Of a stretch of DNA of 21,849 bases, positions 87 to 18,571 are shown one piece after another. The number at the start of each line of letters is the position of its first letter. Within the stretch, counting starts at the first letter, position 1. The stretch spans positions 1 to 21,849 of the IMG/VR virus record IMGVR_UViG_2693429728_000015; one strand, 5' to 3'. The notes under the pieces are model-generated. The model made no database searches. It was given only the letters and a program-made list of their open reading frames with translations, and was not told where the DNA came from. The stretch comes from a virus. Its lineage: Duplodnaviria; Heunggongvirae; Uroviricota; Caudoviricetes. A program made the translations under genes and the position numbers.

Positions 87-1926
87 CGCAGGGGTCGGCC
101 CATTTGAGCTTCAGATAGGAACGTTTGAATTCCTTTCACAAAATACATCACATACTGAACGTGAACATTCCCACTTTGATCTTAAGGCCAAAAAGTATGC
201 AGGACTAATGATTTTTAGGGATAGCTTGAGAGTATTACCTTATGGTCGAGTAGATAATGATTTCTTCCAGATAGAAGAAAGACGTTCATGGAATGCAGGG
301 CGATATTATTGGTCTAATAGAAGGATTTTTGGTTATATTGGAATTACTCAATCCAGTAATAAAGAGCTGAAAGATAAGTCGGGGAGAGAGGGATTCATAA
401 GAAACCAGGCTGCAAGAGAACTGAAAACTATTATATCTAATTTGTTAACTGAACTTGCTGATAGATTTTTTGGTTCACGTTCTGATGACCGTAAAGAGCT
501 TTTAGAACAAGTTAAGCGTGAAAAAGAGTTAAGAAAATCTGCTCAACAACAAGCTCGAAAATCAACACAAAAAAGTTTTTCAGAAGCTTTGAAGAATCAG
601 ACACCAGTTCTTGATGCTTCCTTGGAGGCTGTTAAAAGGCTGAAAACTAAGCTTGATAAAACTGATGGTTCGTTAGATTTAAACTATCTTAAAATTATAG
701 ACAGTGATCTTACAAACTTAGATGCGTTGCGCAGTGAAATTAAAACGCCTATCAAACCTCCAAAACTTGGAATGTATGAAGAGAAATATAGAGACTACAG
801 AGATAAATTTAATGAGTTCTCTGCGTATATTCTACAAATGAAGTTAGCAATTAATAAACTTGATTCTGAATTAAATAAACTTGAGCCTTCATTGTCAGCG
901 AAAAATCACCTTGAAAAAAATCAAGGTATTATTAATTCTAAACTAACTAAGTTTAATAACACGATAGAGGAGAAGATACATTCTCTTTTAAAAAAATGGG
1001 CCGATGAAATAAAGGTTGATCGAAGTGATTATTATGCTAAAACTATATCAGTTGTTGATTCAATAGATAATGATTCACAAATTGAAAATGTGTTTAATTT
1101 GCTCGATAGTTTATATGTTGAGTCAGTTGATACCCTAACTTTCAAATATCAATCAATAATAAAAGGTCTCGATGGATTATTTGAAGGTATAAACTTAGAT
1201 TCAGCATTCTCATTATCTGAAGAAGAACGCTCATATTTTGAAGAAAAAGCTAAAAGTTTAAACGCGCTTGCACAGTTAGGTATTAGTGTTGAGATAATAT
1301 CTCATGAACTTGAAGAAATGGATTCTATGGTAACCAGAGGACTAAACTCTCTTCCTACTTCTGTAAAAGAACACCCTGGTTTTTCATTGGCGTTAAATGC
1401 TCACAGATCGCTTACTCAACAAATACGTTTCTTATCACCTTTGAAAATATCAGGTTATCAATCCAGGCAGAGAATAACTGGAAAAAATATCATGGATTAT
1501 GTCCTGAAGTTCTTTGGGGAGCGTTTCGAACGGCAACGAATAACTATTGAATTTAGTGAAGAGTTTAAGCAAATCGCAATAACAGATATACCATCAAGGA
1601 TCTATCCTGTTTTTACTAATATTATCAACAATGCAATGTATTGGGTCAGTCTGTCAAATAATAGGCTCATAAAGATTGGTTTTGTGAATTCTTTGGTTAT
1701 CATAGCAAATTCTGGTCCGGCAATTGATACCGATGATATCCCGCGACTATTTGAACTATTTTATAGCAAAAGAGCAAATGGACATGGGGTAGGTCTGTAT
1801 CTATGTCGAGAAAACCTTGCTGTTGCACATCATAAAATATGGTATTCAGAACCTGATGAAGGCGATAACTATTTAATAAAAGATGGCGCTAATTTTGTGA
1901 TCCAGTTCAATGGAGTGGAGTTCTAA
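87..1926 (+). pseudogene. 3' portion of a histidine-kinase-like (GHKL) ATPase gene, with its 5' part removed by the IS3 insertion
   Basis: The reading frame is open from the IS3 boundary (AGVGPFELQIGTFEF...LMIFRDSLRVLPYG), so the annotated ATG at 208 is internal. A long K/E/L-rich helical middle region follows. The C-terminus has an H-box-like ISHELEEM (His codon 1303-1305), an N-box NIINNAMYW, a G1-like SGPAIDTDD, FELFYSKR and a G2-like GHGVGLYLCRENL. Confidence 0.7.
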
Positions 1927-1927
1927 T

Positions 1928-3676
1928 ATGACAGTGGCAAATTATAATTCTCTTGTCCAGAAAACTTTCTGCGAAAATGCAATTCGTTCCGTTGTCATGA
2001 TTGATGACGATTTTCTGACGTATTCTGAATCAATCAGGGCGTTGAATAACGAAGTTGATTTAGACTACAACAAAATTGACTCATCTAAACGAGCCGCTAC
2101 TCTTGAGAGCTTTTTTCAATCTAAAAATATGATTTGTGATGTTGACAATGGTTCTGTTAATTTCGATGTGGATCGGATTAGAAAATCAGATCTTATTATT
2201 GTAGATTATCATCTTGATAATAATGCACCTGATAAAACACTTAAACTATTACAAGATTTGAAAGGCTCCGATCATTTAAATATGATTGTAATATATACTA
2301 GAGAGAATTTAGAAACGGTTTGGATGCAGATATCATCGACTCTCAAAGGTGCTCTGGATATCAACAGCTTGATCATTGACTACGATAATGAAGATGTCCA
2401 AAGTTATTGGGAAGACGTTGTATTACCGAACTTAAATGATAATGGTAATAAAGCTCTCACAAGAGATGAAACAATAGCCTATATTAAAGACAGTAAGCCT
2501 TGTAGAAGAATTAAAAGATTAATACATGATGATGCTGTGTTGGAGGATCAAAAGGATAAAAACTTCATTGCAAAAATGATTGCAGAATATGCTGTGTCTA
2601 GAAATGCAATTATTTCTAGCAACACATCTGGCAATGTCATTCGGGGTGATGAAAGCGGAGTAAAATGGATTCAATGTGGTAATATCTTTGTCTCCCTATT
2701 TCATAAGGTTCAAGATGATCATGAAAACGATGGAGATAGGATTTGGCAAACTCTCAATGATTCTCTCATTGAATGGAAACCATCTTATTATCAGTTAATA
2801 AAATCTGAAATTCAGAATGCAATCGAAGCTGAGGCTTTATCTTTTGTAAATCATTTGGCTAACGATCATTACGGTCAAGCTGCGTGGTTAAATGAGATAT
2901 TAAAATCAGACTCGCCTGATATTAGATGTAGAAATATTGACTTTGTATTTGGTAATTTATCAGAAGAGCTTTATCAAAGACTTAAAAATAATAATACGCT
3001 GGATGAATTTATCAAAAGTGTTTTTGATAGCTATTCAAATGAATACGCTAACAGCGGAGTTGCTGCATTGCTCCAATATTGCTCTTCAAAAATGGATCTG
3101 CCATCAAATAATGATACTTATCACGAAATGTATCATGCTTTAAATATGAATTTGTCTTCAAAGAATTTTGAAGATGGTCATATTTCTACTGGCACTATTT
3201 TCTTTGATACAGAGTCGAACAAATGGTATTTATGTGTATCTGCGGCATGTGATTTGGTTCCTACTCAGGGTAACGACCCTCACCATGTAAGATTAAGTCC
3301 GCACAGGCTCATTAAAGTTCTGGAGCTTTTTAACGCCAGTCAGAGTAAAGCATTGCCATTTGCTGAACATTCGAAATATATATATGTAATGCATAAAAAT
3401 CAAAGAAAATATCTCTCTATTTTCGAAGGGGATAAAACGCTTCCTGTTGTTGATTATATGGTGGTGTTGAATCATGGAACAACAGTTGATGGCGAAGAAA
3501 AAAATATTATTTCTGCCGTGTTTTTAAGTAATATGGATGGCAACGTGCAAAATGTTCCTGTCCGACTCAAACTTAAATCTCAACTGAGAACTGGTTATGC
3601 AGAAAGATATCAGGCTATAGCGTCTCAGTATAGCTCAAGGATTGGTGTGGATTATGTATCAATGATGCTACCATAA
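1928..3676 (+). CDS. Receiver(REC)-like domain protein with a roughly 450-aa uncharacterised C-terminal region (putative effector)
   Basis: GGAG lies 7 nt upstream of the ATG at 1928, 2 nt after the upstream stop. An alternative ATG at 1910 overlaps the upstream gene. The N-terminus shows receiver hallmarks: acidic pocket VVMIDDD, candidate phospho-acceptor LIIVDYHLD (Asp codon 2204-2206) and a VIYT threonine about 31 aa later. I recognise no domain in the remainder (for example WYLCVSAACDLVP). Confidence 0.65.
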   Translation: MTVANYNSLVQKTFCENAIRSVVMIDDDFLTYSESIRALNNEVDLDYNKIDSSKRAATLESFFQSKNMICDVDNGSVNFDVDRIRKSDLIIVDYHLDNNAPDKTLKLLQDLKGSDHLNMIVIYTRENLETVWMQISSTLKGALDINSLIIDYDNEDVQSYWEDVVLPNLNDNGNKALTRDETIAYIKDSKPCRRIKRLIHDDAVLEDQKDKNFIAKMIAEYAVSRNAIISSNTSGNVIRGDESGVKWIQCGNIFVSLFHKVQDDHENDGDRIWQTLNDSLIEWKPSYYQLIKSEIQNAIEAEALSFVNHLANDHYGQAAWLNEILKSDSPDIRCRNIDFVFGNLSEELYQRLKNNNTLDEFIKSVFDSYSNEYANSGVAALLQYCSSKMDLPSNNDTYHEMYHALNMNLSSKNFEDGHISTGTIFFDTESNKWYLCVSAACDLVPTQGNDPHHVRLSPHRLIKVLELFNASQSKALPFAEHSKYIYVMHKNQRKYLSIFEGDKTLPVVDYMVVLNHGTTVDGEEKNIISAVFLSNMDGNVQNVPVRLKLKSQLRTGYAERYQAIASQYSSRIGVDYVSMMLP

Positions 3677-3688
3677 TTATTATATTTT

Positions 3689-3722
3689 AGGCGTGGTGAT
3701 TTTTTTTCGCCATGCCTATTTT
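3689..3722 (+). terminator. Putative Rho-independent terminator between convergent genes
   Basis: AGGCGTGG (3689-3696) pairs with CCATGCCT (3710-3717), including one G-U pair, around a T-rich loop. ATTTTATATTT follows. Confidence 0.35.
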
Positions 3723-3747
3723 ATATTTATCATCACAATGATGTTGT

Positions 3748-4163
3748 TTATTTTTGTTTAAGTCTTCTAAGCTTCATGCATTCTAATGAGAATAATAATA
3801 GAGTTGTGCTGTATATAAAGCCAGAGTTAGTTAATAACTTTAAATTTAATGCTTCAGGATTTTCACTGAGAAAGTGAAAGGCATAAACTAAGTATACAGC
3901 TAAAGTAGCCGTTCCAATTGTTGGTCCAATATCGCCTTGATCATGAGGTTCAAGGTTTACATTGAACTTGAAGATTAGCCATTCAAATCCCCAAGTAAAA
4001 AAACAACTAATATCATGGCTGCGAATAATTTCGCGATGTTATCTGCTGATGGATTCATCAGAACAGATTGTTTCTGAAAAAATTCACAAAGTGAGAGTCC
4101 GAAAAAAATAAAAAAAAGTGGTCTGGAACTAAATTTTTCAAAAACTTTGAATAGGGTTTCCAT
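3748..4163 (-). pseudogene. Small hydrophobic (membrane) protein ORF, split by a frameshift at an A7/T7 homopolymer
   Basis: ORF 3975-4163 (METLFKVF...VVFLLGDLNG*) stops shortly after the tract at 3997-4003. A second frame stays open from that tract to a stop at 3748-3750 (TWGFEWLIFKFNVNLEPHDQGDIGPTIGTATLAVYLVYAFHF...). One extra T in the tract would fuse the two into a protein of about 138 aa. A TATAAT hexamer and AAGG precede the ATG. Confidence 0.35.
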
Positions 4164-4201
4164 TTTCTTTACCTTCAGGATTATATTAGCTATTCTGATA
4201 C

Positions 4202-5431
4202 TTAGGCTACCAGAGCATTTGATCTTTGAGCTTGAACGTAATCACTCCACCATTGCATCAAACTCTGTCGCTCTATCAGATATTCTGCACGATTGTATGC
4301 TGCGATAATTTCATCTTTTTTCGAGTGGGCAAGCGCTGCCTCAAGAACTTCAGCTCTGAATTTACCAGACTCCTCTGCCGCTGTTCGTGCAATAGAACGC
4401 ATACCGTGAGCTACAAGCTCGCCTCCGAACCCCATTCGGATGATAGCTGCGTTGGCTGTTTGTTCATGCATATGATTAAGAGGCGCTTTTATGCTGGGGA
4501 AAACCCATTCTCTATGCCCACTTATTGATTTCATTAATTCAAGGATGCGCAAAGCTTCTTTACTCAAAGGAACTTTGTGAAGCTTTTTCATTTTCATGAA
4601 ATCAGCAGGAATGTTCCAAATGCTGTTGGTTGTATCAATATCAGACCACCTTGCGCGAACGGCTTCACCCGGACGAACCCATGTCAACAATTGCCATTCA
4701 ATTAGCATACGTGTTTCCAACCGGATTGACGCATTCGTCAAAGATTCCATAAACCTTGGCAATTCGCTTGGGGGAAGGGCAGGCATATTTTGCTTTTTTG
4801 GTTTACTGAATCTTTGACCAAGGTTGTCAGCCGGGTTGAACTCAATAAGTTCTTCAGTAGCTGCCCACCGGAAGATTTCATTCAGACGTGAAATGATACG
4901 GCGTAGAGTTTCCAATACGCCTCGTTGCTCAATAGGATCAAGGTGTTGTTTTAAGAGCTTAGGTCGGATCTCATTGATAGGGACATTACCCAGACCGGGA
5001 AAGACATTTCTCTCTAAGCTGCGCCAGATGTCTGCTGCATGGTCTTGTGAGATACCTGATGTCTTTACCTTCTCATCTAACCATTTCCGCGCTACGGCTT
5101 GGAGAGTGTGCTCAGTAGCACTCTTTAATGCCTTCGCCTTATCGTTGTTATGGATTTGGGGATCAACACCATTTGCCAGAAAGGAGAGATATTCATCACG
5201 TAAGGCTCTGGCTCTTGCAAGGGTAAGGTGAGGATATGTCCCAAGGCTCATTTTGGTTCTTTTCTTGCTCACTGGTACTGCATACCTGAAATACCAATTT
5301 TTCTTGCCTCCTTTCGCCAAAGGAGCGATTCGTAGAATCAGACCATCACCGTCAAACAAGTTGATTTCTTTATCGGCTGGCTTGGTGCTTTTGATTTCAG
5401 TGTCAGTGAGCTTCTTAGCGATTTTTGCCAT
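4202..5431 (-). CDS. P4-type (tRNA/tmRNA-associated) tyrosine integrase
   Basis: The N-terminus MAKIAKKLTDTEIKSTKPADKEINLFDGDGLILRI is typical of P4-like integrases. The C-terminus has ...VRPGEA..., HGMRSIARTA and AYNRAEYL (catalytic Arg, His-x-x-Arg and Tyr). Overall it resembles CP4-57 IntA as I remember it. I prefer the ATG at 5429-5431 (GAGGG upstream) to the ORF-track start at 5473, which has no Shine-Dalgarno sequence. Confidence 0.9.
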   Translation of the reverse strand: MAKIAKKLTDTEIKSTKPADKEINLFDGDGLILRIAPLAKGGKKNWYFRYAVPVSKKRTKMSLGTYPHLTLARARALRDEYLSFLANGVDPQIHNNDKAKALKSATEHTLQAVARKWLDEKVKTSGISQDHAADIWRSLERNVFPGLGNVPINEIRPKLLKQHLDPIEQRGVLETLRRIISRLNEIFRWAATEELIEFNPADNLGQRFSKPKKQNMPALPPSELPRFMESLTNASIRLETRMLIEWQLLTWVRPGEAVRARWSDIDTTNSIWNIPADFMKMKKLHKVPLSKEALRILELMKSISGHREWVFPSIKAPLNHMHEQTANAAIIRMGFGGELVAHGMRSIARTAAEESGKFRAEVLEAALAHSKKDEIIAAYNRAEYLIERQSLMQWWSDYVQAQRSNALVA

Positions 5432-5528
5432 TTTGGGACCCTCGGTTTTTGGACCCTTCTTAATGGGTCCCATTCAGGGTGCCATAACTCGTAGTTCTCA
5501 GCAATTCTCACTGGACGACAATAGACGT

Positions 5529-5596: not shown

Positions 5597-5641
5597 TGGT
5601 GGAGCTGGCGGGAGTTGAACCCGCGTCCGAAATTCCTACAT
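5597..5641 (-). repeat. ssrA: 45-bp copy of the 3' end of ssrA (tmRNA T-arm and acceptor, ending CCA): attachment-site junction between two integrated elements
   Basis: The minus strand reads ATGTAGGAATTTCGGACGCGGGTTCAACTCCCGCCAGCTCCACCA, identical to the E. coli tmRNA 3' end as I recall it. Similarity stops abruptly at 5642, where AT-rich sequence begins, so this is a fragment and not the gene. Confidence 0.85.
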
Positions 5642-5764
5642 ACTAATAATATATCTTTAAAATCAAAATATTCTATTATTTATCAATGTATTATGTTTAT
5701 GTGGTGTTAAGGGGTTTATATGGGTTTTAGTTCTCTGCCGCCAAAATGCAGCCAAAAAAATTGA

Positions 5765-5794
5765 ATGGTAAAACGCCAGTTCGTTGAACTGGCG
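5765..5794 (-). terminator. Rho-independent terminator ending the int-dut/dcd-like-thyX-like transcription unit
   Basis: A perfect 9-bp stem, CGCCAGTTC / GAACTGGCG (5774-5794), has a 3-nt loop. On the minus strand TTTTACC follows, 11 nt after the stop at 5805. Confidence 0.7.
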
Positions 5795-5804
5795 AGATCT
5801 TGTC

Positions 5805-6572
5805 TTATTGTTTTATTATCTTAACGTGCGCCGTTCCTCCATTGACTTTTTCGAAATCTTGGAACAAGGCAGGGGCATCTTGAGTTACAATATCGTAAAG
5901 TTTTTCTGAAACTGTTCTCATTTCATAGTCACCCTGTATTGCTCCTCTCATTTCGAAGAAGTGTCGAATTGCGCGAGCATTTGCTGTGACGATTATTTTT
6001 GTCTCGGTTGCATTAGGCAATATAGAGCGAGAAGCGCTTCTTAGGGCCCGCATTTTTTCTTTTTTGTTCTCATACGATTGGTTTTCACGGATTTTTTTCA
6101 AGGATTGCTTATAAAAATCCAGACTACTTTCAATATGTTGGCACCATGACTTAAACAATTCTGGGTCATTTTTTACTTCTATAGGGGCTACGAATTCAGC
6201 ATCGGATTCATCATGATACTGTTGGGATAACTGGCTATATGAAAAACCAGCTCTATGCCGAACTAGCTGGTGTGTAAATGCACGAGATACCCCAGTAATT
6301 AAAAAGGTCCAGTTCAAATGTTCTAAGACACTTTCATGCCCTTGAATAATTAAATTGTTGATATATTGACTTGTAGTCCGTGGAGACTGCTTATCCTCTC
6401 CAAAAGACATATAACATAGCCTGCCAGCGGCCTCTACCAGAAGCTCAGCTTCGGTCGCCTGCCCTTTGCGAACCCATTGCAATGATGATGTGTTTAAAAA
6501 ATCATCAAAAACATTACTTTCAAATGAAGGGTGTGATATGCATTTTACTGATAAATCAGAGATTTTTATCAT
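5805..6572 (-). CDS. Divergent ThyX-like protein (flavin-dependent thymidylate synthase fold)
   Basis: ThyX signature blocks are present: AAGRLCYMS, QGHESVLEH, THQLVRHRAGFSYSQLSQQY (compare the RHR...S....SxRY motif) and ARAIRHFFEMRG. GGGAG lies 5 nt upstream of the ATG, and the start is 2 nt after the upstream stop. The gene is AT-rich relative to the phage backbone. Confidence 0.75.
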   Translation of the reverse strand: MIKISDLSVKCISHPSFESNVFDDFLNTSSLQWVRKGQATEAELLVEAAGRLCYMSFGEDKQSPRTTSQYINNLIIQGHESVLEHLNWTFLITGVSRAFTHQLVRHRAGFSYSQLSQQYHDESDAEFVAPIEVKNDPELFKSWCQHIESSLDFYKQSLKKIRENQSYENKKEKMRALRSASRSILPNATETKIIVTANARAIRHFFEMRGAIQGDYEMRTVSEKLYDIVTQDAPALFQDFEKVNGGTAHVKIIKQ

Positions 6573-6574
6573 TT

Positions 6575-7360
6575 TTACTCCCGTATAGCTTTTGGGGTGC
6601 TTACTTTAGCATCAACCTTTGGTTCGTTTGATTTAGCATTTTTTAGTAATTCAACGGTGCTTTTTAGGCTATTTATTTCATTTTGTTGAACTTTTATTGT
6701 TAATTCAAGATCTTTTGTACTACTGACATTACTGGATACTATTTGAAATAAGAAAGGAATTGCTAGGGTTATCAACGTTAGCATTAAGGCTGCTATCGCA
6801 ATTATAAAGCCAGTTTTTTTCGCAATGATTTTATTGATTTCTTTCGGAAGTCGTTTATCAAGTCCTGCAAAATCCTTTCCCATTCTAGAAAGTTGATCAT
6901 CATCCAATTTATTTACGATTTTTCCTTGGTAACCTTTAGTCGGTATTATTGTTTTAAATAATAACATTCGGGCTACTGCAGAATTTTGTGTCAATGAGAA
7001 TGGTTCTTTTGACATATTTACAAGATATATTGAAATTATGCCATTATATCCAGGGTCAATATGCCCTGGATTCGTCATGATAATTCCATTTTTTGATAGT
7101 GTGTTTCTTGGGAATATTACACCAGCTAAATTTTTTGCAAGTTGGAATTTTTCATTTAACTCTAATATTACAGTTTCCCCTGGCATCAGGATATGGTTGT
7201 TACGTGTTTTTTTATTGTCTTGACAGTCTGGTATATGTATTGTTTTTACAGAGAGATCAATGCTTGCAGATTGAACTTTAAATGTTCCATTTAATACCGT
7301 TAATGGATCAAAAATGTTGCCTCGCTGAATTTCATCATTGATTTCTATTTCAGACAGCAT
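6575..7360 (-). CDS. dUTPase/dCTP-deaminase (Dut/Dcd) superfamily protein with a C-terminal transmembrane helix and a coiled-coil tail
   Basis: Blocks align with E. coli Dut and Dcd: SASIDLSV, MPGETVIL, FPRNTLSKNGI and GHIDPGYNGIISIYLVNMSKEPFSLTQNSAVARMLLF. A hydrophobic segment, GFIIAIAALMLTLITLAIPFLFQIV (about nt 6737-6811), is followed by a heptad-like tail. AGGA lies 8 nt upstream of the ATG, 26 nt downstream of the int stop. Confidence 0.7.
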   Translation of the reverse strand: MLSEIEINDEIQRGNIFDPLTVLNGTFKVQSASIDLSVKTIHIPDCQDNKKTRNNHILMPGETVILELNEKFQLAKNLAGVIFPRNTLSKNGIIMTNPGHIDPGYNGIISIYLVNMSKEPFSLTQNSAVARMLLFKTIIPTKGYQGKIVNKLDDDQLSRMGKDFAGLDKRLPKEINKIIAKKTGFIIAIAALMLTLITLAIPFLFQIVSSNVSSTKDLELTIKVQQNEINSLKSTVELLKNAKSNEPKVDAKVSTPKAIRE

Positions 7361-7386
7361 ATCAAAATCCTATATTTGTAAAGTTA

Positions 7387-8400
7387 TTATAAATTAGCCA
7401 GAGGGTTTTTTATTACTGCATCTTCAAGATGCTCTGGGGAAAAATGTGCATAAATCATAGTCATTTTTATATCAGAGTGGCCTAAAATATCTCGTAAAAC
7501 CAAAATATTACCACCATTCATCATAAAATGGCTGGCGAATGTATGGCGCAGAACGTGGGTGCATTGGCCCTCTGGTAACTCAATGTCAGCTCGCTTTACT
7601 GCTCGTTCAAAGGCTTTTCTGCAAGGAGTGAATAACTTCCCTCTGTTCTTAGGGAGTTCGTCATACAGATCCTGAGATATCGGCACGGTACGGTTTTTCT
7701 TGCCCTTAGTCTTGGTATAGGTGATCCGGTATTTCGATAACTGATGGCCCTGCAGATTTTCGGCTTCACTCCAGCGCGCGCCGGTGGCCAGGCATATTTT
7801 TGCAATTAAAAGTAGACTGGGGCTTTGAGAATCAGCACAGGCATCCAGCAGACGTTTAATTTCTTCCGGGGTCAGGAACGCCAGTTCACCCTCAGCAATT
7901 TTAAATGTTGGCAGCCCGGCAAGCGGATTGGGGGCTGACCAGTGGCCCAACTTTTTCAGTGTGCCAAAAACAGATGATAGGTTGCGCTGTTCAAGGTTTA
8001 CAGTGCGGGGCTTAACGGGCGACATAAGCGTGCCCTCTTCATTTCGCACTTCACCTTTTAGCCGCGCTTCTCGGTATTTAGTAAAATCACCGGCTGTCAG
8101 CTCTGAGGCGATGGGATCGCCTAGACCATTACAGATAATTCTAAGTTTCGCCATGAGGCGCTTGGGGTCTGCGAGTGTTTGACCATACAGGGAATACCAC
8201 TGCTCAATTAATTCTGATAGGTGTCGCCGATCTTCCTTTTCCCCCAGCCATGGCTTTTTGTTCACTTCTTCCATTGTGAAGCTTTCAAAAGCAATGGCTT
8301 CGCCTTTCGTAGCAAATTGCTTACGCACGCGCTTGCCATTGCGTCCATGGGGATAGCACTCGCACAACCATTTACCGTTTGGCTGTTTTCTGACAGTCAT
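7387..8400 (-). CDS. int: P2/186-type prophage tyrosine integrase
   Basis: It is 337 aa, the same length as P2 Int, and collinear with it as I recall it (GRNGKR.RK.F..K.EA.AFE; LATGARWSEAE; HVLRHTFASHFMMNGG; MIYAHFSPEHL). Confidence 0.92.
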   Translation of the reverse strand: MTVRKQPNGKWLCECYPHGRNGKRVRKQFATKGEAIAFESFTMEEVNKKPWLGEKEDRRHLSELIEQWYSLYGQTLADPKRLMAKLRIICNGLGDPIASELTAGDFTKYREARLKGEVRNEEGTLMSPVKPRTVNLEQRNLSSVFGTLKKLGHWSAPNPLAGLPTFKIAEGELAFLTPEEIKRLLDACADSQSPSLLLIAKICLATGARWSEAENLQGHQLSKYRITYTKTKGKKNRTVPISQDLYDELPKNRGKLFTPCRKAFERAVKRADIELPEGQCTHVLRHTFASHFMMNGGNILVLRDILGHSDIKMTMIYAHFSPEHLEDAVIKNPLANL

Positions 8401-8402
8401 GT

Positions 8403-9035
8403 TTAGATACTCTTTATTACTTTGACTGCACGCCCAATAACTTCCACATCATCAGTAGAGCACTCGAAAGACGCTTCATCTTGATTTACTACAATCTTAT
8501 TGCCGGGAATCCGCATGATTTTTGCAACAATAATCATTCCATCAATATTGATAAGCCAGAATCCATTGCTGACCTGTTTAATTGATTTATCGATGAGATA
8601 ACAATTAGTAGGGGTTTCTAAGAACATCAATTCTTCATAATCTGCAGGTAATATGCTGTGGTCTAGGAAAATCTCTTCATCAATACTGAGTTGTCCATTC
8701 TCCAGGGTTCCTTTAGGAATAGCTGGAGTTATGAGTTTGGATAACGGTTTAATTGCTTGTTTGTTCTCATTATGAGAACTTTTCTCAGGCTCAGCTCCTC
8801 CTTTCATGCTTCCCTGTCCTGTAGCTAACCAAAGCAACGAAACACCGGTTTCTAGTGCGCACTGAATTATCCAGTCAGCAGGAAAGCTGTCACGTAACAC
8901 TCTGTTTGCCATAGTGCTTTTTGAGACATTCAGGTGCTCGCTTAATGCCTGCTTAGTTGTGAATCCATAAGCCTCAAGCAGCCTTCCAATAGCTGCCTTA
9001 CCTCCCGTATCGGAACCCATTCTGATGTTTAACAT
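8403..9035 (-). CDS. cI: 186-type CI immunity repressor
   Basis: An N-terminal helix-turn-helix (GFTTKQALSEHLNVSKSTMANRVLRDSFPADWIIQCALETGVSLLWLATGQG) is typical of the phage CI repressor family. The gene is divergent from the early operon and sits directly upstream of int. GGAGA lies 6 nt upstream of the ATG. Confidence 0.8.
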   Translation of the reverse strand: MLNIRMGSDTGGKAAIGRLLEAYGFTTKQALSEHLNVSKSTMANRVLRDSFPADWIIQCALETGVSLLWLATGQGSMKGGAEPEKSSHNENKQAIKPLSKLITPAIPKGTLENGQLSIDEEIFLDHSILPADYEELMFLETPTNCYLIDKSIKQVSNGFWLINIDGMIIVAKIMRIPGNKIVVNQDEASFECSTDDVEVIGRAVKVIKSI

Positions 9036-16062: not shown

Positions 16063-16674
16063 ATGGATTTAGTCTTTAAAGTTCTGGCTTCGTTGGGTGG
16101 GGTGTCTTTTGTTGCATCTGGCATATTTGTTTGGATCGGGAAAGTTTATTTAGAAAGATATAAGTCGCGGCTAAACAAAGATATTGCTGAATTTCAATCA
16201 CAACTGAGTGCAACTAATGAAAGAATAAAGGCTAAGTTAGACAATTCTGTTTATGTAACGAAAGCGTATTTTGATAAGGAGTTATCAGCATATAGTCTCA
16301 TTTGGAATTCGATGTTTGAAACCAGAGAAAGCGTGCTTAAGCTGAGGCCTGCGCTGGATCATGTTGACCCCAACGAACCATTTGAAGAGAGAAAATTTAG
16401 AAGGTTGAAAGTTTTTTCTGATGCATTTAACACTTTTGTTACAAGTGTTGAATCTAACAAACCGTTCATCTCACCAGAGGTTTATATAATCTTGGACCGT
16501 TTCCGGAAGGAATGCCTTTCAGAGTCAATATCGTTTAAGCATAGCGATCCAGAATTTGACGGGCAAAATTATTGGAAAGAGGCGGAGTTGAACCATACAA
16601 CCATCATCAAGCTTTTTGATGAGACGTGTGATGCAATTCGAGACAGGATGCACACATTAACTGTGGTTACGTAG
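16063..16674 (+). CDS. Single-pass membrane protein of unknown function (prophage cargo, or moron)
   Basis: The N-terminus has a hydrophobic helix, LVFKVLASLGGVSFVASGIFVWIG. The rest is helical and charged. The gene has its own promoter and terminator and is AT-rich relative to the backbone. Confidence 0.7.
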   Translation: MDLVFKVLASLGGVSFVASGIFVWIGKVYLERYKSRLNKDIAEFQSQLSATNERIKAKLDNSVYVTKAYFDKELSAYSLIWNSMFETRESVLKLRPALDHVDPNEPFEERKFRRLKVFSDAFNTFVTSVESNKPFISPEVYIILDRFRKECLSESISFKHSDPEFDGQNYWKEAELNHTTIIKLFDETCDAIRDRMHTLTVVT

Positions 16675-16766
16675 GTTTCCAAAAAGTCTCGATGCCCGCT
16701 TTGGAGATTGTGCATGTCTATGCCGCATGAATCCGCATGATCGTTTGAGGATCGTTTTAGCTGAGG

Positions 16767-16790
16767 CCCGCCAGGAGTGGCGGGATTTTG
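16767..16790 (+). terminator. Rho-independent terminator after the 203-aa gene
   Basis: CCCGCC (16767-16772), loop AGGAGT, GGCGGG (16779-16784), then ATTTTG. Confidence 0.55.
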
Positions 16791-16834
16791 CTTATGTCAT
16801 GCAGGCGCATGAAAACCGCTACATAAAGCGGGCA

Positions 16835-16853
16835 GGCGTGGCGGGGATACGAG
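16835..16853. other. Candidate cos site (19-nt cohesive-end sequence of a P2/186-family phage)
   Basis: GGCGTGGCGGGGATACGAG shares its first 13 nt with the 186 cohesive end as I recall it (GGCGTGGCGGGGAAAGCAT). The following GCGCGCT matches the sequence just inside the P2/P4 left end (GGCGAGGCGGGGAAAGCACTGCGCGCTGA). Confidence 0.65.
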
Positions 16854-16870
16854 CGCGCGCTCATTACTTT

Positions 16871-16890
16871 TATAATTCTAGGGTTATAAT
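16871..16890 (+). promoter_or_regulatory. Possible promoter(s) for the KAP NTPase gene
   Basis: Two perfect TATAAT hexamers (16871-16876 and 16885-16890) lie 30-45 nt upstream of the ATG. I could not identify a convincing -35 element. Confidence 0.3.
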
Positions 16891-16918
16891 ACGGGGCTGT
16901 CTTTCTAGGAGAAAACAC

Positions 16919-18571
16919 ATGTCCTTAGAGTTTATCAAAGAACAGTTGTCAGATTTTATCTCATCTACAGAACCAGAAGTAATGGCTATACAGGGTGAAT
17001 GGGGAATTGGTAAAACCTATACTTGGAATACGTTCCTAAAAGATAATAAAGATAAGGTTGCATTTAATAGATATAGTTATGTCTCTCTTTTTGGTATAAA
17101 TTCACTAGATTCTTTAAAGTATTCTATTTTTGAGAATGCAATTACAAAGGAATATATTGGAAATAAACCTGATTTGGAGACAGCAACAACAAACGCAAGT
17201 GGACTTTTTGAATCATTTTCTCGAAAAGCAGCAGGTTTGTTAAAAGAAGTTCCTGTTGTAAAAAACTTCTCTACGACACTTGAAGCAATGTCATTTCTGA
17301 CCGTTTCTAAAATGATTGTAGTAATAGATGACTTAGAAAGGCGTGGCAAAAATTTAGATGTTAAAGATGTTTTAGGGCTAGTATCTCTATTAAAAGAGCA
17401 GAAGGATTGTAAGGTGGTTCTATTGCTTAACAATGGCACAGCTAGTATGGAGGATTATTCTACTTATAAAGAAAAGGTCATTGATAGAGATATCACTTAC
17501 AATCCAACACCAGAAGAATGCGCAGATATAGCCTATAAAGGTGATTCTCATGTTTATAACTTGTTAAGTAAATATTCCATTTCTTTAGGTATCAAGAATA
17601 TTCGAATCTTAAAAAAGATAGAACGTTTTTTCGTGTCCTTAATACCAAATATTATAGGTGATGTTGAGACAATTTCAAATGAAGTTGCGCATTCATTAAC
17701 TCTGTATTGTTGGAGCCATTACGGATTTTCTCCAGAGGGAGATGTGCCATCACTAGAATATATTAGGGGAGTGAGGAATATATATACTTATAATGACAAG
17801 GAAGAAGGCCATGAGAAAATCTGGCTTAATACCTTGCTTAAATATGGATATAGAAAAACGAATGATCTTGATGAGGTTCTTATTGATATGGTTAGATATG
17901 GCTATCTTGATAAGAGCAGTTTCCAAAGACAAATAAGCCTAAGGAATGAGGAGATTACGCGTGATAATAAACGAGGTTCCTTATCTGAGGCATGGCAGTT
18001 CTTTCATAATTCATTTGATGACAATCAAAATCAGGTTGTTGACAAGCTATATCAAGCGGTGGTTGATGGGATGAAGTATGTGACTCCAAGTGATTTAGAT
18101 AATGTTGTCGGACTATATAGGGATTTCGGAGAGAATGCTAAGGCGAGTGAATTGATTGAACAGTTTATTAATTATGGTAACGATGCTCTAAAGGAATATG
18201 TTCAATCTATTTATGTGAATGTTCATCCCGTAAGAGATACTGAGTTGTTGTCAAAAATTCAAGCCTATTCTAAGATTATAAATATTGATGGTTCAATATA
18301 TGATGTTCTTAAGAAATTATCAGGTCAGAATGGTTGGTCTGATAGACATGAGGAAATATTGGATGCTGCTTCAGTAGATGACTACTATCAATTATTTAAA
18401 AATGTCATTCTTGATGGTGGTGATTCAATAATAGCTACGGCGCTTAAATTCGGAAATTTTAGTAATGGTTCTGATAGAATGAATCGTATAGGGAAAAAGG
18501 CAAGGGATGCCTTGATAAGAATTGGAGATGAATCGGCGATTAATAAAATGCGTGTAAGGCGATTTTTGTGA
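16919..18571 (+). CDS. KAP-family-like P-loop NTPase, 550 aa (prophage cargo; candidate anti-phage protein)
   Basis: AGGAG lies 8 nt upstream of the ATG at 16919. Walker A is IQGEWGIGKTY (nt 16994-17017). Walker B is MIVVIDDLERRGKNLDVKDVLGLVSLLKE (nt 17312 onward), the DDL(D/E)R signature of KAP NTPases. This is the most AT-rich gene in the window. The ORF-track start at 16727 runs through the terminator and cos and is rejected. Confidence 0.75.
   Translation: MSLEFIKEQLSDFISSTEPEVMAIQGEWGIGKTYTWNTFLKDNKDKVAFNRYSYVSLFGINSLDSLKYSIFENAITKEYIGNKPDLETATTNASGLFESFSRKAAGLLKEVPVVKNFSTTLEAMSFLTVSKMIVVIDDLERRGKNLDVKDVLGLVSLLKEQKDCKVVLLLNNGTASMEDYSTYKEKVIDRDITYNPTPEECADIAYKGDSHVYNLLSKYSISLGIKNIRILKKIERFFVSLIPNIIGDVETISNEVAHSLTLYCWSHYGFSPEGDVPSLEYIRGVRNIYTYNDKEEGHEKIWLNTLLKYGYRKTNDLDEVLIDMVRYGYLDKSSFQRQISLRNEEITRDNKRGSLSEAWQFFHNSFDDNQNQVVDKLYQAVVDGMKYVTPSDLDNVVGLYRDFGENAKASELIEQFINYGNDALKEYVQSIYVNVHPVRDTELLSKIQAYSKIINIDGSIYDVLKKLSGQNGWSDRHEEILDAASVDDYYQLFKNVILDGGDSIIATALKFGNFSNGSDRMNRIGKKARDALIRIGDESAINKMRVRRFL

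Follow-up and report, generated by a model that had tools for sequence, protein, structure and literature searches.

A mobile gene pair encoding a membrane-anchored Dcd/Dut-fold protein and a variant ThyX as candidate anti-phage cargo of 186-like prophages

The window analyzed here is a stretch of 21,849 nucleotides from a 186-like Escherichia coli prophage (Caudoviricetes; IMG/VR record IMGVR_UViG_2693429728_000015), in which two genes on the minus strand separate the integrase gene (int) from the attachment (att) site. Gene 1 (6575–7360, −) encodes a 261-residue protein, here termed Dcd-TM, that combines a Dcd/Dut-like domain with a predicted transmembrane helix. Gene 2 (5805–6572, −) encodes a 255-residue protein, here termed ThyX-Q, assigned to a distinct subfamily of flavin-dependent thymidylate synthases. 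An earlier note, written from the letters of the DNA alone, had proposed that the two constitute a nucleotide-pool-manipulating module with a possible role in defence, and both open reading frames (ORFs) are found, coupled and between the int stop codon and att, exactly where it had placed them. Direct reading of the coupling junction (6573–6582, −) reveals a GGGAG Shine–Dalgarno sequence (6578–6582) within the end of gene 1, followed by the TAA stop codon of gene 1 (6575–6577), a 2-nt spacer, and the ATG of gene 2 (6570–6572); in relatives of the pair, the two genes overlap by 4–11 nt.

Upstream of the pair and on the same strand lie the genes for a P2/186-type integrase (7387–8400, −; Pfam Int_N and Phage_integrase; stop codon 7387–7389) and for a CI repressor (8403–9035, −; Pfam Phage_CI_repr and Phage_CI_C). 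The spacer between int and gene 1 (7361–7386, −) is only 26 nt long and contains an AGGA ribosome-binding site (7368–7371) as its sole feature. In agreement with the earlier note, a scan of this spacer detected no promoter-like site on the strand of the pair, for which the room would also be insufficient, and it is reasonable to suppose that the pair is co-transcribed with cI and int and expressed in the lysogen. Ten nucleotides past the stop codon of gene 2, a G+C-rich hairpin with a 9-bp stem (CGCCAGUUC/GAACUGGCG; 5774–5794, −) is followed by the tail UUUUACCAUU, together forming a probable intrinsic terminator (5764–5794, −). The 61-nt stretch holding this hairpin folds with −13.8 kcal/mol (z = −2.9), and a role as terminator of the pair is plausible. 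The adjective “strong” given to it in the earlier note has to be dropped, since a consensus terminator scanner made no call at this site on account of the sequence of its tail. The G+C content amounts to ~32% in gene 1 and ~40% in gene 2 as opposed to 49–51% in int. The prophage ends at an att-site remnant (5597–5632, +), a 36-nt match, unique in the window, to the reverse complement of the 3′ end of ssrA, the gene for transfer-messenger RNA (tmRNA). A second att copy was not found in the window, and scans of the window for tRNA/tmRNA genes and Rfam families gave no match.

The N-terminal part of Dcd-TM adopts the Dcd/Dut fold named in the earlier note. Pfam profiles for DCD (5.9e-15) and dUTPase (1e-12) match residues 52–137 only, whereas PHROG 1663 matches residues 2–241. 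An AlphaFold2 model computed from 34 relatives reaches a mean predicted local distance difference test (pLDDT) score of 81.7, with values above 90 over most of residues 1–150 and below 50 after residue 246. The best Foldseek matches of this model are the Dcd-Dut and Dcd structures 4xjc, 4a6a, 2qlp, and 1xs1, with an E-value of 6.5e-12 and a target-normalised template modelling (TM) score of ~0.7 against Dcd-Dut structures. Judged by pLDDT and the family alignment, the beta-barrel domain comprises approximately residues 1–150 (6911–7360, −). It is followed by a transmembrane helix located by a hydropathy scan at about residues 184–207 (6740–6811, −; mean Kyte–Doolittle value 2.65) and by a helical, coiled-coil-like segment with a low-complexity tail, predicted to be extracytoplasmic (residues 208–261; 6578–6739, −). 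AlphaFold2 models a single continuous helix from residue 173 to residue 244, the first part of which is formed by the transmembrane segment. The transmembrane segment is kept in 33 of 34 relatives, and 50–80 residues extend beyond it across the family, so that the membrane anchor and coiled coil seen in the earlier note are confirmed as features of the C-terminus. Since Lys and Arg are more abundant on the N-terminal side of the helix, the predicted topology is N-in, C-out. Source annotations of Dcd-TM relatives include “FtsL” and “Lpp”.

Despite this fold, the residues required for deamination have been lost. In the alignment with 4xjc, the segment ITLELFN pairs with ISIYLVN of gene 1, which brings Y112 into the position of the catalytic glutamate (E138 in Escherichia coli, E145 in Methanocaldococcus jannaschii). 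Among 132 distinct relatives, this position is occupied by Thr (94), Cys (17), Tyr (17), or Ala (1), with gaps in the remaining three, and never by Glu; the glutamate is likewise missing in all 127 motif-carrying sequences out of 142 representatives. In the same 132 relatives, the equivalent of R110, the motif II arginine of Dut, is Pro in 108, the motif-IV glutamine has given way to a hydrophobic residue, in most cases Leu, and the R115 equivalent is unconserved. The family alignment also shows that gene 1 contains neither the canonical C-terminal lid nor the RGxxGFGS arm of motif V. Neither curated threshold is reached, with 56.2 bits for TIGR02274 (Dcd) against a cut-off of 92.8 and 45.5 bits for NF001862 (Dut) against a cut-off of 103. 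By comparison, the motif III aspartate, D102, is retained without exception (130 of 130 ungapped sequences). Near-invariance extends to T96-N97-P98-G99-H100-x-D102-P103-G104-Y105-x-G107, N115-M116, and S33-x-D35-L36, as well as to D163-F164 and R170 in the linker preceding the membrane helix. The pattern of conservation indicates that the nucleotide-pocket region is under strong constraint while the capacity for deamination and most of the canonical ligands of the triphosphate appear to be lost.

Because the glutamate is missing throughout the family, gene 1 is almost certainly not a deoxycytidine triphosphate (dCTP) deaminase, and may be no enzyme at all; its candidacy as a true dCTP deaminase was rejected on this ground. 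The pathway drawn in the earlier note, in which gene 1 acts as an active dCTP deaminase or bifunctional Dcd-Dut and passes deoxyuridine monophosphate (dUMP) on to ThyX as a sink for dCTP, has become extremely improbable, even though gene 1 is most similar to Dcd-Dut enzymes in both sequence and fold and source databases label its relatives “dCTP deaminase”: its first step, from dCTP to deoxyuridine triphosphate (dUTP) or dUMP, would depend on the very residues that have been replaced. The family itself is large. An exhaustive profile search returned 473 clusters (at 50% identity) matching Dcd-TM at E ≤ 1e-30, and nearly all of the best 150 listed matches are full-length, in proteins of ~245–360 residues. 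A relative of 611 residues (P0300), considered as a possible domain fusion, was discarded as an apparently over-extended ORF.

Gene 2 appears, from its profile matches and alignments, to encode a well-conserved and genuine ThyX. Its product matches Pfam Thy1 (PF02511) with 2.6e-48, passes the cut-off of the ThyX equivalog TIGR02170 (154.8 bits versus 87.9), and aligns end to end with the ThyX proteins of Mycobacterium tuberculosis, to which it is ~45% identical (structures, E-value 7e-42), and Corynebacterium glutamicum. The ThyX fold recognized in the earlier note is thereby upheld, whereas the attribute “divergent” is not: a single diagnostic substitution sets the protein apart. This substitution is situated in the ThyX motif RHRAGFSYSQLSQQY (residues 105–119; 6216–6260, −), which contains a one-residue insertion and Gln118 in place of the conserved dUMP-site arginine. 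The motif of the subfamily as a whole reads RHRxGF[SA][YF]SQLSQQY, with the insertion located after RHR. Gln occupies the position of R90 of Thermotoga maritima ThyX in 50/50 partner proteins, in 120/120 best database homologues, and in all 165 sequences of a joint alignment. In these 165 proteins, the equivalents of T. maritima H53, R78, H79, R80, S88, Y91, R147, R165, and R174 are kept to at least 99%, and that of N163 is also conserved; the M. tuberculosis and C. glutamicum reference sequences were obtained from database search matches. Besides the inserted residue, G109, ThyX-Q proteins have invariant residues of their own: W88, W143, E172, R175, G210, G214, and M218. R175 and E172 replace the Lys and Leu of M. 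tuberculosis ThyX, and one may conjecture that R175 is a relocated substrate-binding arginine that compensates for the lost R90 equivalent. This latter residue (R107 in M. tuberculosis, R86 in Helicobacter pylori) is listed among the conserved residues of the dUMP site (PMC6514825), and the T. maritima R90A variant suffers a large rate defect with dUMP (PMC8316439, PMC11940539).

Dcd-TM and ThyX-Q are near-obligately linked. When 185,579 species-representative genomes were scanned for the motif of Dcd-TM, 51 loci emerged, distributed over Pseudomonadota, Acidobacteriota, Actinomycetota, Verrucomicrobiota, Cyanobacteriota, Bacteroidota, and Myxococcota. In about 44 of the 45 evaluable loci—those in which the sequence continues past the gene—Dcd-TM is accompanied by a ThyX ~50% identical to that of the window, usually 20–500 bp downstream and on the same strand. 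The reciprocal scan of metagenomes for ThyX-Q motifs detected at least 498 loci, 80 of which were fetched and 72 could be evaluated; Dcd-TM is present in 70 of these, directly upstream and on the same strand in 66. An overlapping Dcd-TM gene was also found for each of three ThyX-Q proteins looked up in databases. Three loci deviate from this arrangement, namely a Dcd-like fragment without ThyX within 5 kb downstream (L064:1-213) and two ThyX-Q genes without Dcd-TM in the 0.6–1.8 kb of available upstream sequence (L144 and L161); these may represent decayed copies or alternative arrangements.

The pair is a horizontally mobile unit distributed across many phyla. Identity across phyla is ~50% for ThyX-Q as compared to 25–35% for Dcd-TM, flanking genes are not syntenic between loci, and within E. 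coli the pair was detected in just 2 of 5,426 complete genomes. The ThyX-Q family is very common in soil metagenomes. Searches of 50,697 isolated phage genomes (at the DNA and protein level) and of 72,556 plasmids (at the protein level) retrieved no full-length homologue, only ordinary Dcd/Dut domain matches. The possibility, raised in the earlier note, that the pair is a common part of lytic-cycle nucleotide-metabolism modules in P2-like phages was rejected in view of its absence from isolated phages and its position downstream of cI and int.

The gene order cI–int–Dcd-TM–ThyX-Q recurs in Klebsiella and in seven IMG/VR prophages besides E. coli, in keeping with the earlier description of the pair as cargo between integrase and attachment site. 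The integrases of these prophages are at least 91% identical, yet Dcd-TM ranges from 50 to 100% and ThyX from 77 to 100% identity; such rapid change in one partner is characteristic of conflict genes. Contrary to the statement in the earlier note that int and att adjoin each other without intervening genes, related E. coli 186-like prophages harbor unrelated ORFans of 222–408 residues at this position, exemplified by strains S88 (L074:2751-3974, 407 residues), Z1322HEC0005 (L075:2746-3972, 408 residues), ET761 (L076:3303-3971, 222 residues), and FORC_081 (L077:2953-3984, 343 residues). The int–att junction of 186-like prophages is a variable cargo slot.

The complete genome of E. coli TUM12355 contains the pair at 100% identity within a heavily decayed prophage (L001 23458-32979), at the opposite end of which the complete ssrA gene is located. 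Its genes for replication endonuclease, portal, and tape-measure proteins are truncated and the Rha gene is frameshifted, while cI, int, Dcd-TM, and ThyX-Q are still intact, an observation consistent with selection on the cargo. In the window, the prophage is intact, and co-linearity with TUM12355 does not extend beyond the pair.

Outside 186-like prophages, the pair resides in a range of integrative elements and islands. In Citrobacter, it adjoins type IV secretion genes of an integrative conjugative element, and a Citrobacter island combines it with a methylase, an NmeDI-type restriction enzyme, GmrSD, and an AAA_15 protein. In Pseudomonas aeruginosa, it shares an island with an nSTAND protein, a UvrD/DEAD helicase of 1,708 residues, and a Ymh protein. 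A marine integrative element known from metagenome contigs (L081-L084) consists of an integrase, Dcd-TM, ThyX-Q, three ORFs of unknown function, a Phage_GPA replication protein, and Lamassu LmuC/B/A. A type IV restriction enzyme (PLD-helicase-DUF3427) and a NERD protein are encoded beside this element, whose ThyX-Q is represented in 117 indexed blocks of the contig collection. Of the 12 contexts examined closely, about 8 are a mobile element or a defence island, an uncontrolled count.

Some recurrent neighbors of the pair are predicted to act on nucleotides. Genes for AvcD-type dCTP deaminases constitute 3 of the 129 nearest neighbors (L027:12122-13732, L052:7797-9566, and L057:11558-13129; PADLOC dCTPase, best E-value 8e-154), all called on the same strand as the pair and either adjacent to it or one ORF away. 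They occur in three phyla, represented by Solirubrobacterales, Granulicella, and an alphaproteobacterial genome, and by a rough estimate far fewer than one such adjacency would be expected by chance. At L027, a small P-loop protein is encoded between ThyX and the deaminase. Apart from AvcD, the enrichment seen in Pfam and PADLOC scans of the 129 neighbors is modest and uncontrolled. A four-gene variant, encountered mostly in Acidobacteria and soil metagenomes, comprises Dcd-TM, a MazG-like protein, ThyX-Q, and a NUDIX-WGR fusion in varying order and orientation (L018, L021, L025, L036, L042, L140, L166, L167, and ~20 further metagenome loci). The MazG-like protein, found in 28 loci, is a Cys-rich polypeptide of ~330 residues with two MazG-like EXXE-type helices and without significant Pfam match. 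The NUDIX-WGR fusion occurs in 25 loci, and its NUDIX domain matches the PADLOC candidate PDC-S07 in both proteins tested. Elsewhere, the gene after ThyX encodes a small P-loop kinase-like protein or a PfkB kinase. Across loci, the core pair thus recurs together with a dC deaminase, kinases, and (d)NTP pyrophosphohydrolases, accessory genes that suggest nucleotide chemistry.

Further candidate cargo is present elsewhere in the window. A second integrative island adjoins the prophage at ssrA (208–5473); it carries a CP4-57-type integrase gene (4202–5473, −) and two large overlapping ORFs (208–1926, +, and 1910–3676, +) without PADLOC match, and in similar genomes this region carries the labels “response regulator receiver domain” and “ATP-binding protein”. 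Between the replication and portal genes, the classical P2 hotspot (16063–18571, +) encodes a 614-residue protein matching the PADLOC candidate PDC-S49 (4e-27) next to an unknown ORF of 203 residues, while the corresponding hotspot in the degraded sister prophage of TUM12355 (L001:27468-29804) holds a 778-residue AAA_13 protein with a match to PDC-S06 (2e-265). With its att-proximal, integrase-adjacent location, the slot of Dcd-TM and ThyX-Q resembles the cargo slots and hotspots of P2/186-like prophages and P4-like satellites. It differs from the P2 hotspots of the same prophages, which carry these candidate defence genes, in that its other occupants, the ORFans, have no annotated defence function.

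Both proteins are clearly related to known enzymes but depart from them in characteristic ways. Dcd-TM has in common with Dcd and Dcd-Dut proteins (4xjc, 2qlp, 1xs1) a beta-barrel of the homotrimer type, a motif III of the form IDPG(Y/F/W)xG including its aspartate, and an S-x-D-L sequence resembling motif I. In addition to the lost catalytic and motif-IV residues and the sub-threshold scores, it is distinguished from these enzymes by a DF...R linker, transmembrane helix, and coiled coil in place of the lid, and by its mobility in association with ThyX-Q. ThyX-Q shares the RHR motif and the H53, S88, Y91, R147, R165, and R174 equivalents with canonical ThyX (M. tuberculosis 2af6 and 3gwc; T. 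maritima TM0449), from which it differs by the glutamine at R90/R107, the insertion after RHR, its own invariant residues, and its occurrence as an accessory gene on mobile elements in an operon with Dcd-TM.

Similarities to established defence systems are conceptual in nature. AvcD is a soluble protein encoded by a single gene and composed of a zinc cytidine-deaminase fold and a kinase-like domain. Defence by dCTP deaminases of this kind has reportedly been described by Tal et al. 2022 and Hsueh et al. 2022. In concept, AvcD (PADLOC “dCTPase”) and the pair would both target the dC nucleotide pool, and the two adjoin each other in the three loci mentioned above; in contrast to AvcD, the window proteins match no PADLOC model and Dcd-TM is apparently not a deaminase. 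DS-4, a validated five-gene E. coli defence system discovered with DefensePredictor, comprises a thymidylate synthase, a dNMP kinase, a 5-hydroxymethyldeoxyuridine (5-hmdU) DNA kinase, and a TIR protein (PMC13092281). It parallels the pair in being based on a thymidylate-synthase-type enzyme together with nucleotide kinases. However, this enzyme has the ThyA fold (PF00303) rather than that of ThyX, a TIR effector is present, a Dcd-like membrane protein is not, and there is no sequence relationship. Identity of the pair with the “thymidylate synthase” system of DefensePredictor was accordingly rejected, that system being DS-4; WP_053891067 and WP_053891068 were not found in the readable portions of the DefensePredictor supplements. 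The two-gene Clover system (CloA dGTPase/CloB) responds to a rise in deoxythymidine triphosphate (dTTP) as a phage cue, with dTTP as activating and p3diT as restraining signal (PMC12265719). It resembles the pair as a two-gene defence with a dTTP-centered logic, but its folds, an HD dNTPase and a nucleotidyltransferase, are unrelated, and the likeness is one of analogy only. The accessible literature on ThyX, Dcd, or thymidylate synthase in defence contains no description of the pair, in line with the earlier note, to which no described defence system of this architecture was known.

We tentatively favor the view that the pair represents a self-contained mobile conflict module acting on pyrimidine deoxynucleotides, with anti-phage defence as its likeliest role and prophages among its carriers; as a whole, this interpretation seems quite possible, if short of probable. 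ThyX-Q would be the catalytic engine, a flavin-dependent methylase that most probably converts dUMP into deoxythymidine monophosphate (dTMP) outside the feedback control exerted on host ThyA and Dcd. Dcd-TM is predicted to form a cytoplasmic trimer of the Dut fold, in which the lid is replaced by the DF...R linker leading via the transmembrane helix to the external coiled coil. It may bind a pyrimidine nucleotide such as dUTP, dCTP, or dTTP, and would either hydrolyze this ligand to the monophosphate or act as a sensor or regulator that tethers ThyX-Q to the membrane and gates it there. Upon infection, dC and dU nucleotides would be funneled into dT nucleotides, and the resulting shortage of dCTP and excess of dTTP, a “thymidine block”, would leave phage DNA replication starved or unbalanced. 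In extended versions of the module, AvcD deaminase, NUDIX, MazG-like, and kinase genes might reinforce the block. High dTTP suppresses the supply of dCTP through the allostery of both ribonucleotide reductase and Dcd. As the titles of PDB entries 2qxx, 4a6a, and 2j4q state, dTTP bound in the active site controls Dcd enzymes allosterically. In a more specific version, which we consider unlikely as it stands, the transmembrane Dut-fold trimer would relay an envelope or phage-entry cue, or else a cytoplasmic pyrimidine cue, through the linker that joins the former lid position to the membrane helix, and would thereby switch on the thymidine block by ThyX-Q. Immunity would then arise from overproducing or re-routing a deoxynucleotide rather than from degrading one, with ThyX-Q as the regulated effector.

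Several observations weigh against a defensive role. Neither window protein matches PADLOC v2 (E ≤ 0.1). The four alternative ORFans of the int–att slot have no Pfam or PADLOC match either, so that they do not identify the slot as a hotspot of defence. Roughly one in three of the inspected contexts (Morganella, Shewanella, Pseudoalteromonas, and one other gammaproteobacterium) bears no sign of a mobile element or of defence, and the Pfam families among the 129 nearest neighbors are mostly ordinary housekeeping ones. The invariant change from R90 to Gln, taken together with the strong defect of T. maritima R90A, means that ThyX-Q may be slow or use another substrate. In addition, the model offers no explanation for the harmlessness of unregulated dTMP synthesis in uninfected cells, nor does it contain a demonstrated role for the single-pass anchor and external coiled coil. 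The reading in the earlier note is thus partly supported: its defence idea gains from the islands, the integrative conjugative element, the Lamassu-bearing element, and the adjacency to AvcD, while the deaminase chemistry on which it was built has to be given up.

Three further explanations need to be weighed. As metabolic or auxiliary cargo without immune role, a somewhat unlikely alternative, the pair would provide an alternative supply of thymidylate in which ThyX regenerates tetrahydrofolate rather than dihydrofolate; it might aid the host or prophage under thymine or folate stress, caused for instance by antifolates, or serve as a housekeeping dTMP route in some soil lineages, with the Dcd-like protein as dUMP supplier or feedback regulator. 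Such a function would agree with the near-complete retention of catalytic residues, the equivalog score, and the strong purifying selection on ThyX-Q, with the location of several loci among housekeeping genes, with the nucleotide-metabolism enzymes in the neighborhood, and with the frequency of the family in soil. It is at odds with the strongly accessory, mobile character of a pair that lacks conserved flanks and occurs in only two of the E. coli genomes searched, and with its placement next to AvcD, in prophage slots close to att, in defence islands, and in an element that carries Lamassu. Moreover, the pair is missing from isolated phage genomes, in which bona fide auxiliary thyX and dcd genes are frequent. 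The enterobacterial and Pseudomonas species carrying the pair possess ThyA, Dcd, and Dut of their own, which likewise speaks against such a role. The Dcd-like partner is apparently no deaminase, and dTMP supply leaves its membrane anchor and external coiled coil unexplained.

These latter features would fit an abortive-infection or addiction module, an improbable scheme in which the Dcd-like trimer, as effector or toxin, either perturbs the membrane or keeps out superinfecting phage. ThyX-Q would set the level of a restraining ligand (dUMP, dTMP, or dTTP), and a change of the pool induced by the phage would release Dcd-TM. The near-universal retention of helix and coiled coil, the combination of decayed catalytic residues with an invariant pocket motif as expected of a sensor, the direct connection of the pocket region to the membrane helix by the DF...R linker, the fixed stoichiometry suggested by translational coupling, the allostery of Dcd toward dTTP, and the use of dTTP as an infection cue by Clover are all in its favor. 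A single helix per subunit would nevertheless make a weak pore former, and accessory genes that encode enzymes (NUDIX, MazG-like, kinases, AvcD) suggest a system based on flux rather than purely on signaling. Quite improbable, finally, is a scenario in which ThyX-Q methylates a pyrimidine nucleotide other than dUMP, such as dCMP, UMP, or a phage-specific one, so that its product is a poison or signal or a phage precursor is destroyed, with the Dcd-like, MazG-like, and NUDIX proteins supplying the monophosphate. The invariant glutamine, the residues peculiar to the subfamily, and the impairment of R90A with dUMP invite this idea; the recurring pyrophosphohydrolases and kinases are reminiscent of phage base-modification pathways, and DS-4 joins a thymidylate-synthase-fold enzyme with kinases. 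Against it, R174, which activates N3 of the uracil, and every other ligand of dUMP and flavin adenine dinucleotide are kept, the new R175 could compensate for the lost arginine, and the score lies well above the ThyX cut-off.

Taken as a family, Dcd-TM and ThyX-Q most likely form a new, well-delimited two-gene unit within the known theme of nucleotide-pool immunity. If the pair does act in defence, it would be a mechanistically distinct addition to the nucleotide-pool strategies of AvcD, dGTPase, Clover, and DS-4, in which two classic housekeeping folds have been repurposed and a membrane-tethered Dut/Dcd fold serves as regulator or sensor. Whatever its function, ThyX-Q defines a large ThyX subfamily with an invariant Arg-to-Gln exchange, which bears on the mechanism of ThyX and on inhibitor design, and Dcd-TM a Dcd-like family of at least ~470 clusters mis-annotated as “dCTP deaminase”. 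The same holds for the near-obligate linkage of the two across phyla, with NUDIX-WGR, MazG-like, kinase, and AvcD proteins as optional partners. With respect to prophage biology, the int–att junction is revealed as a site at which 186-like prophages carry variable cargo.

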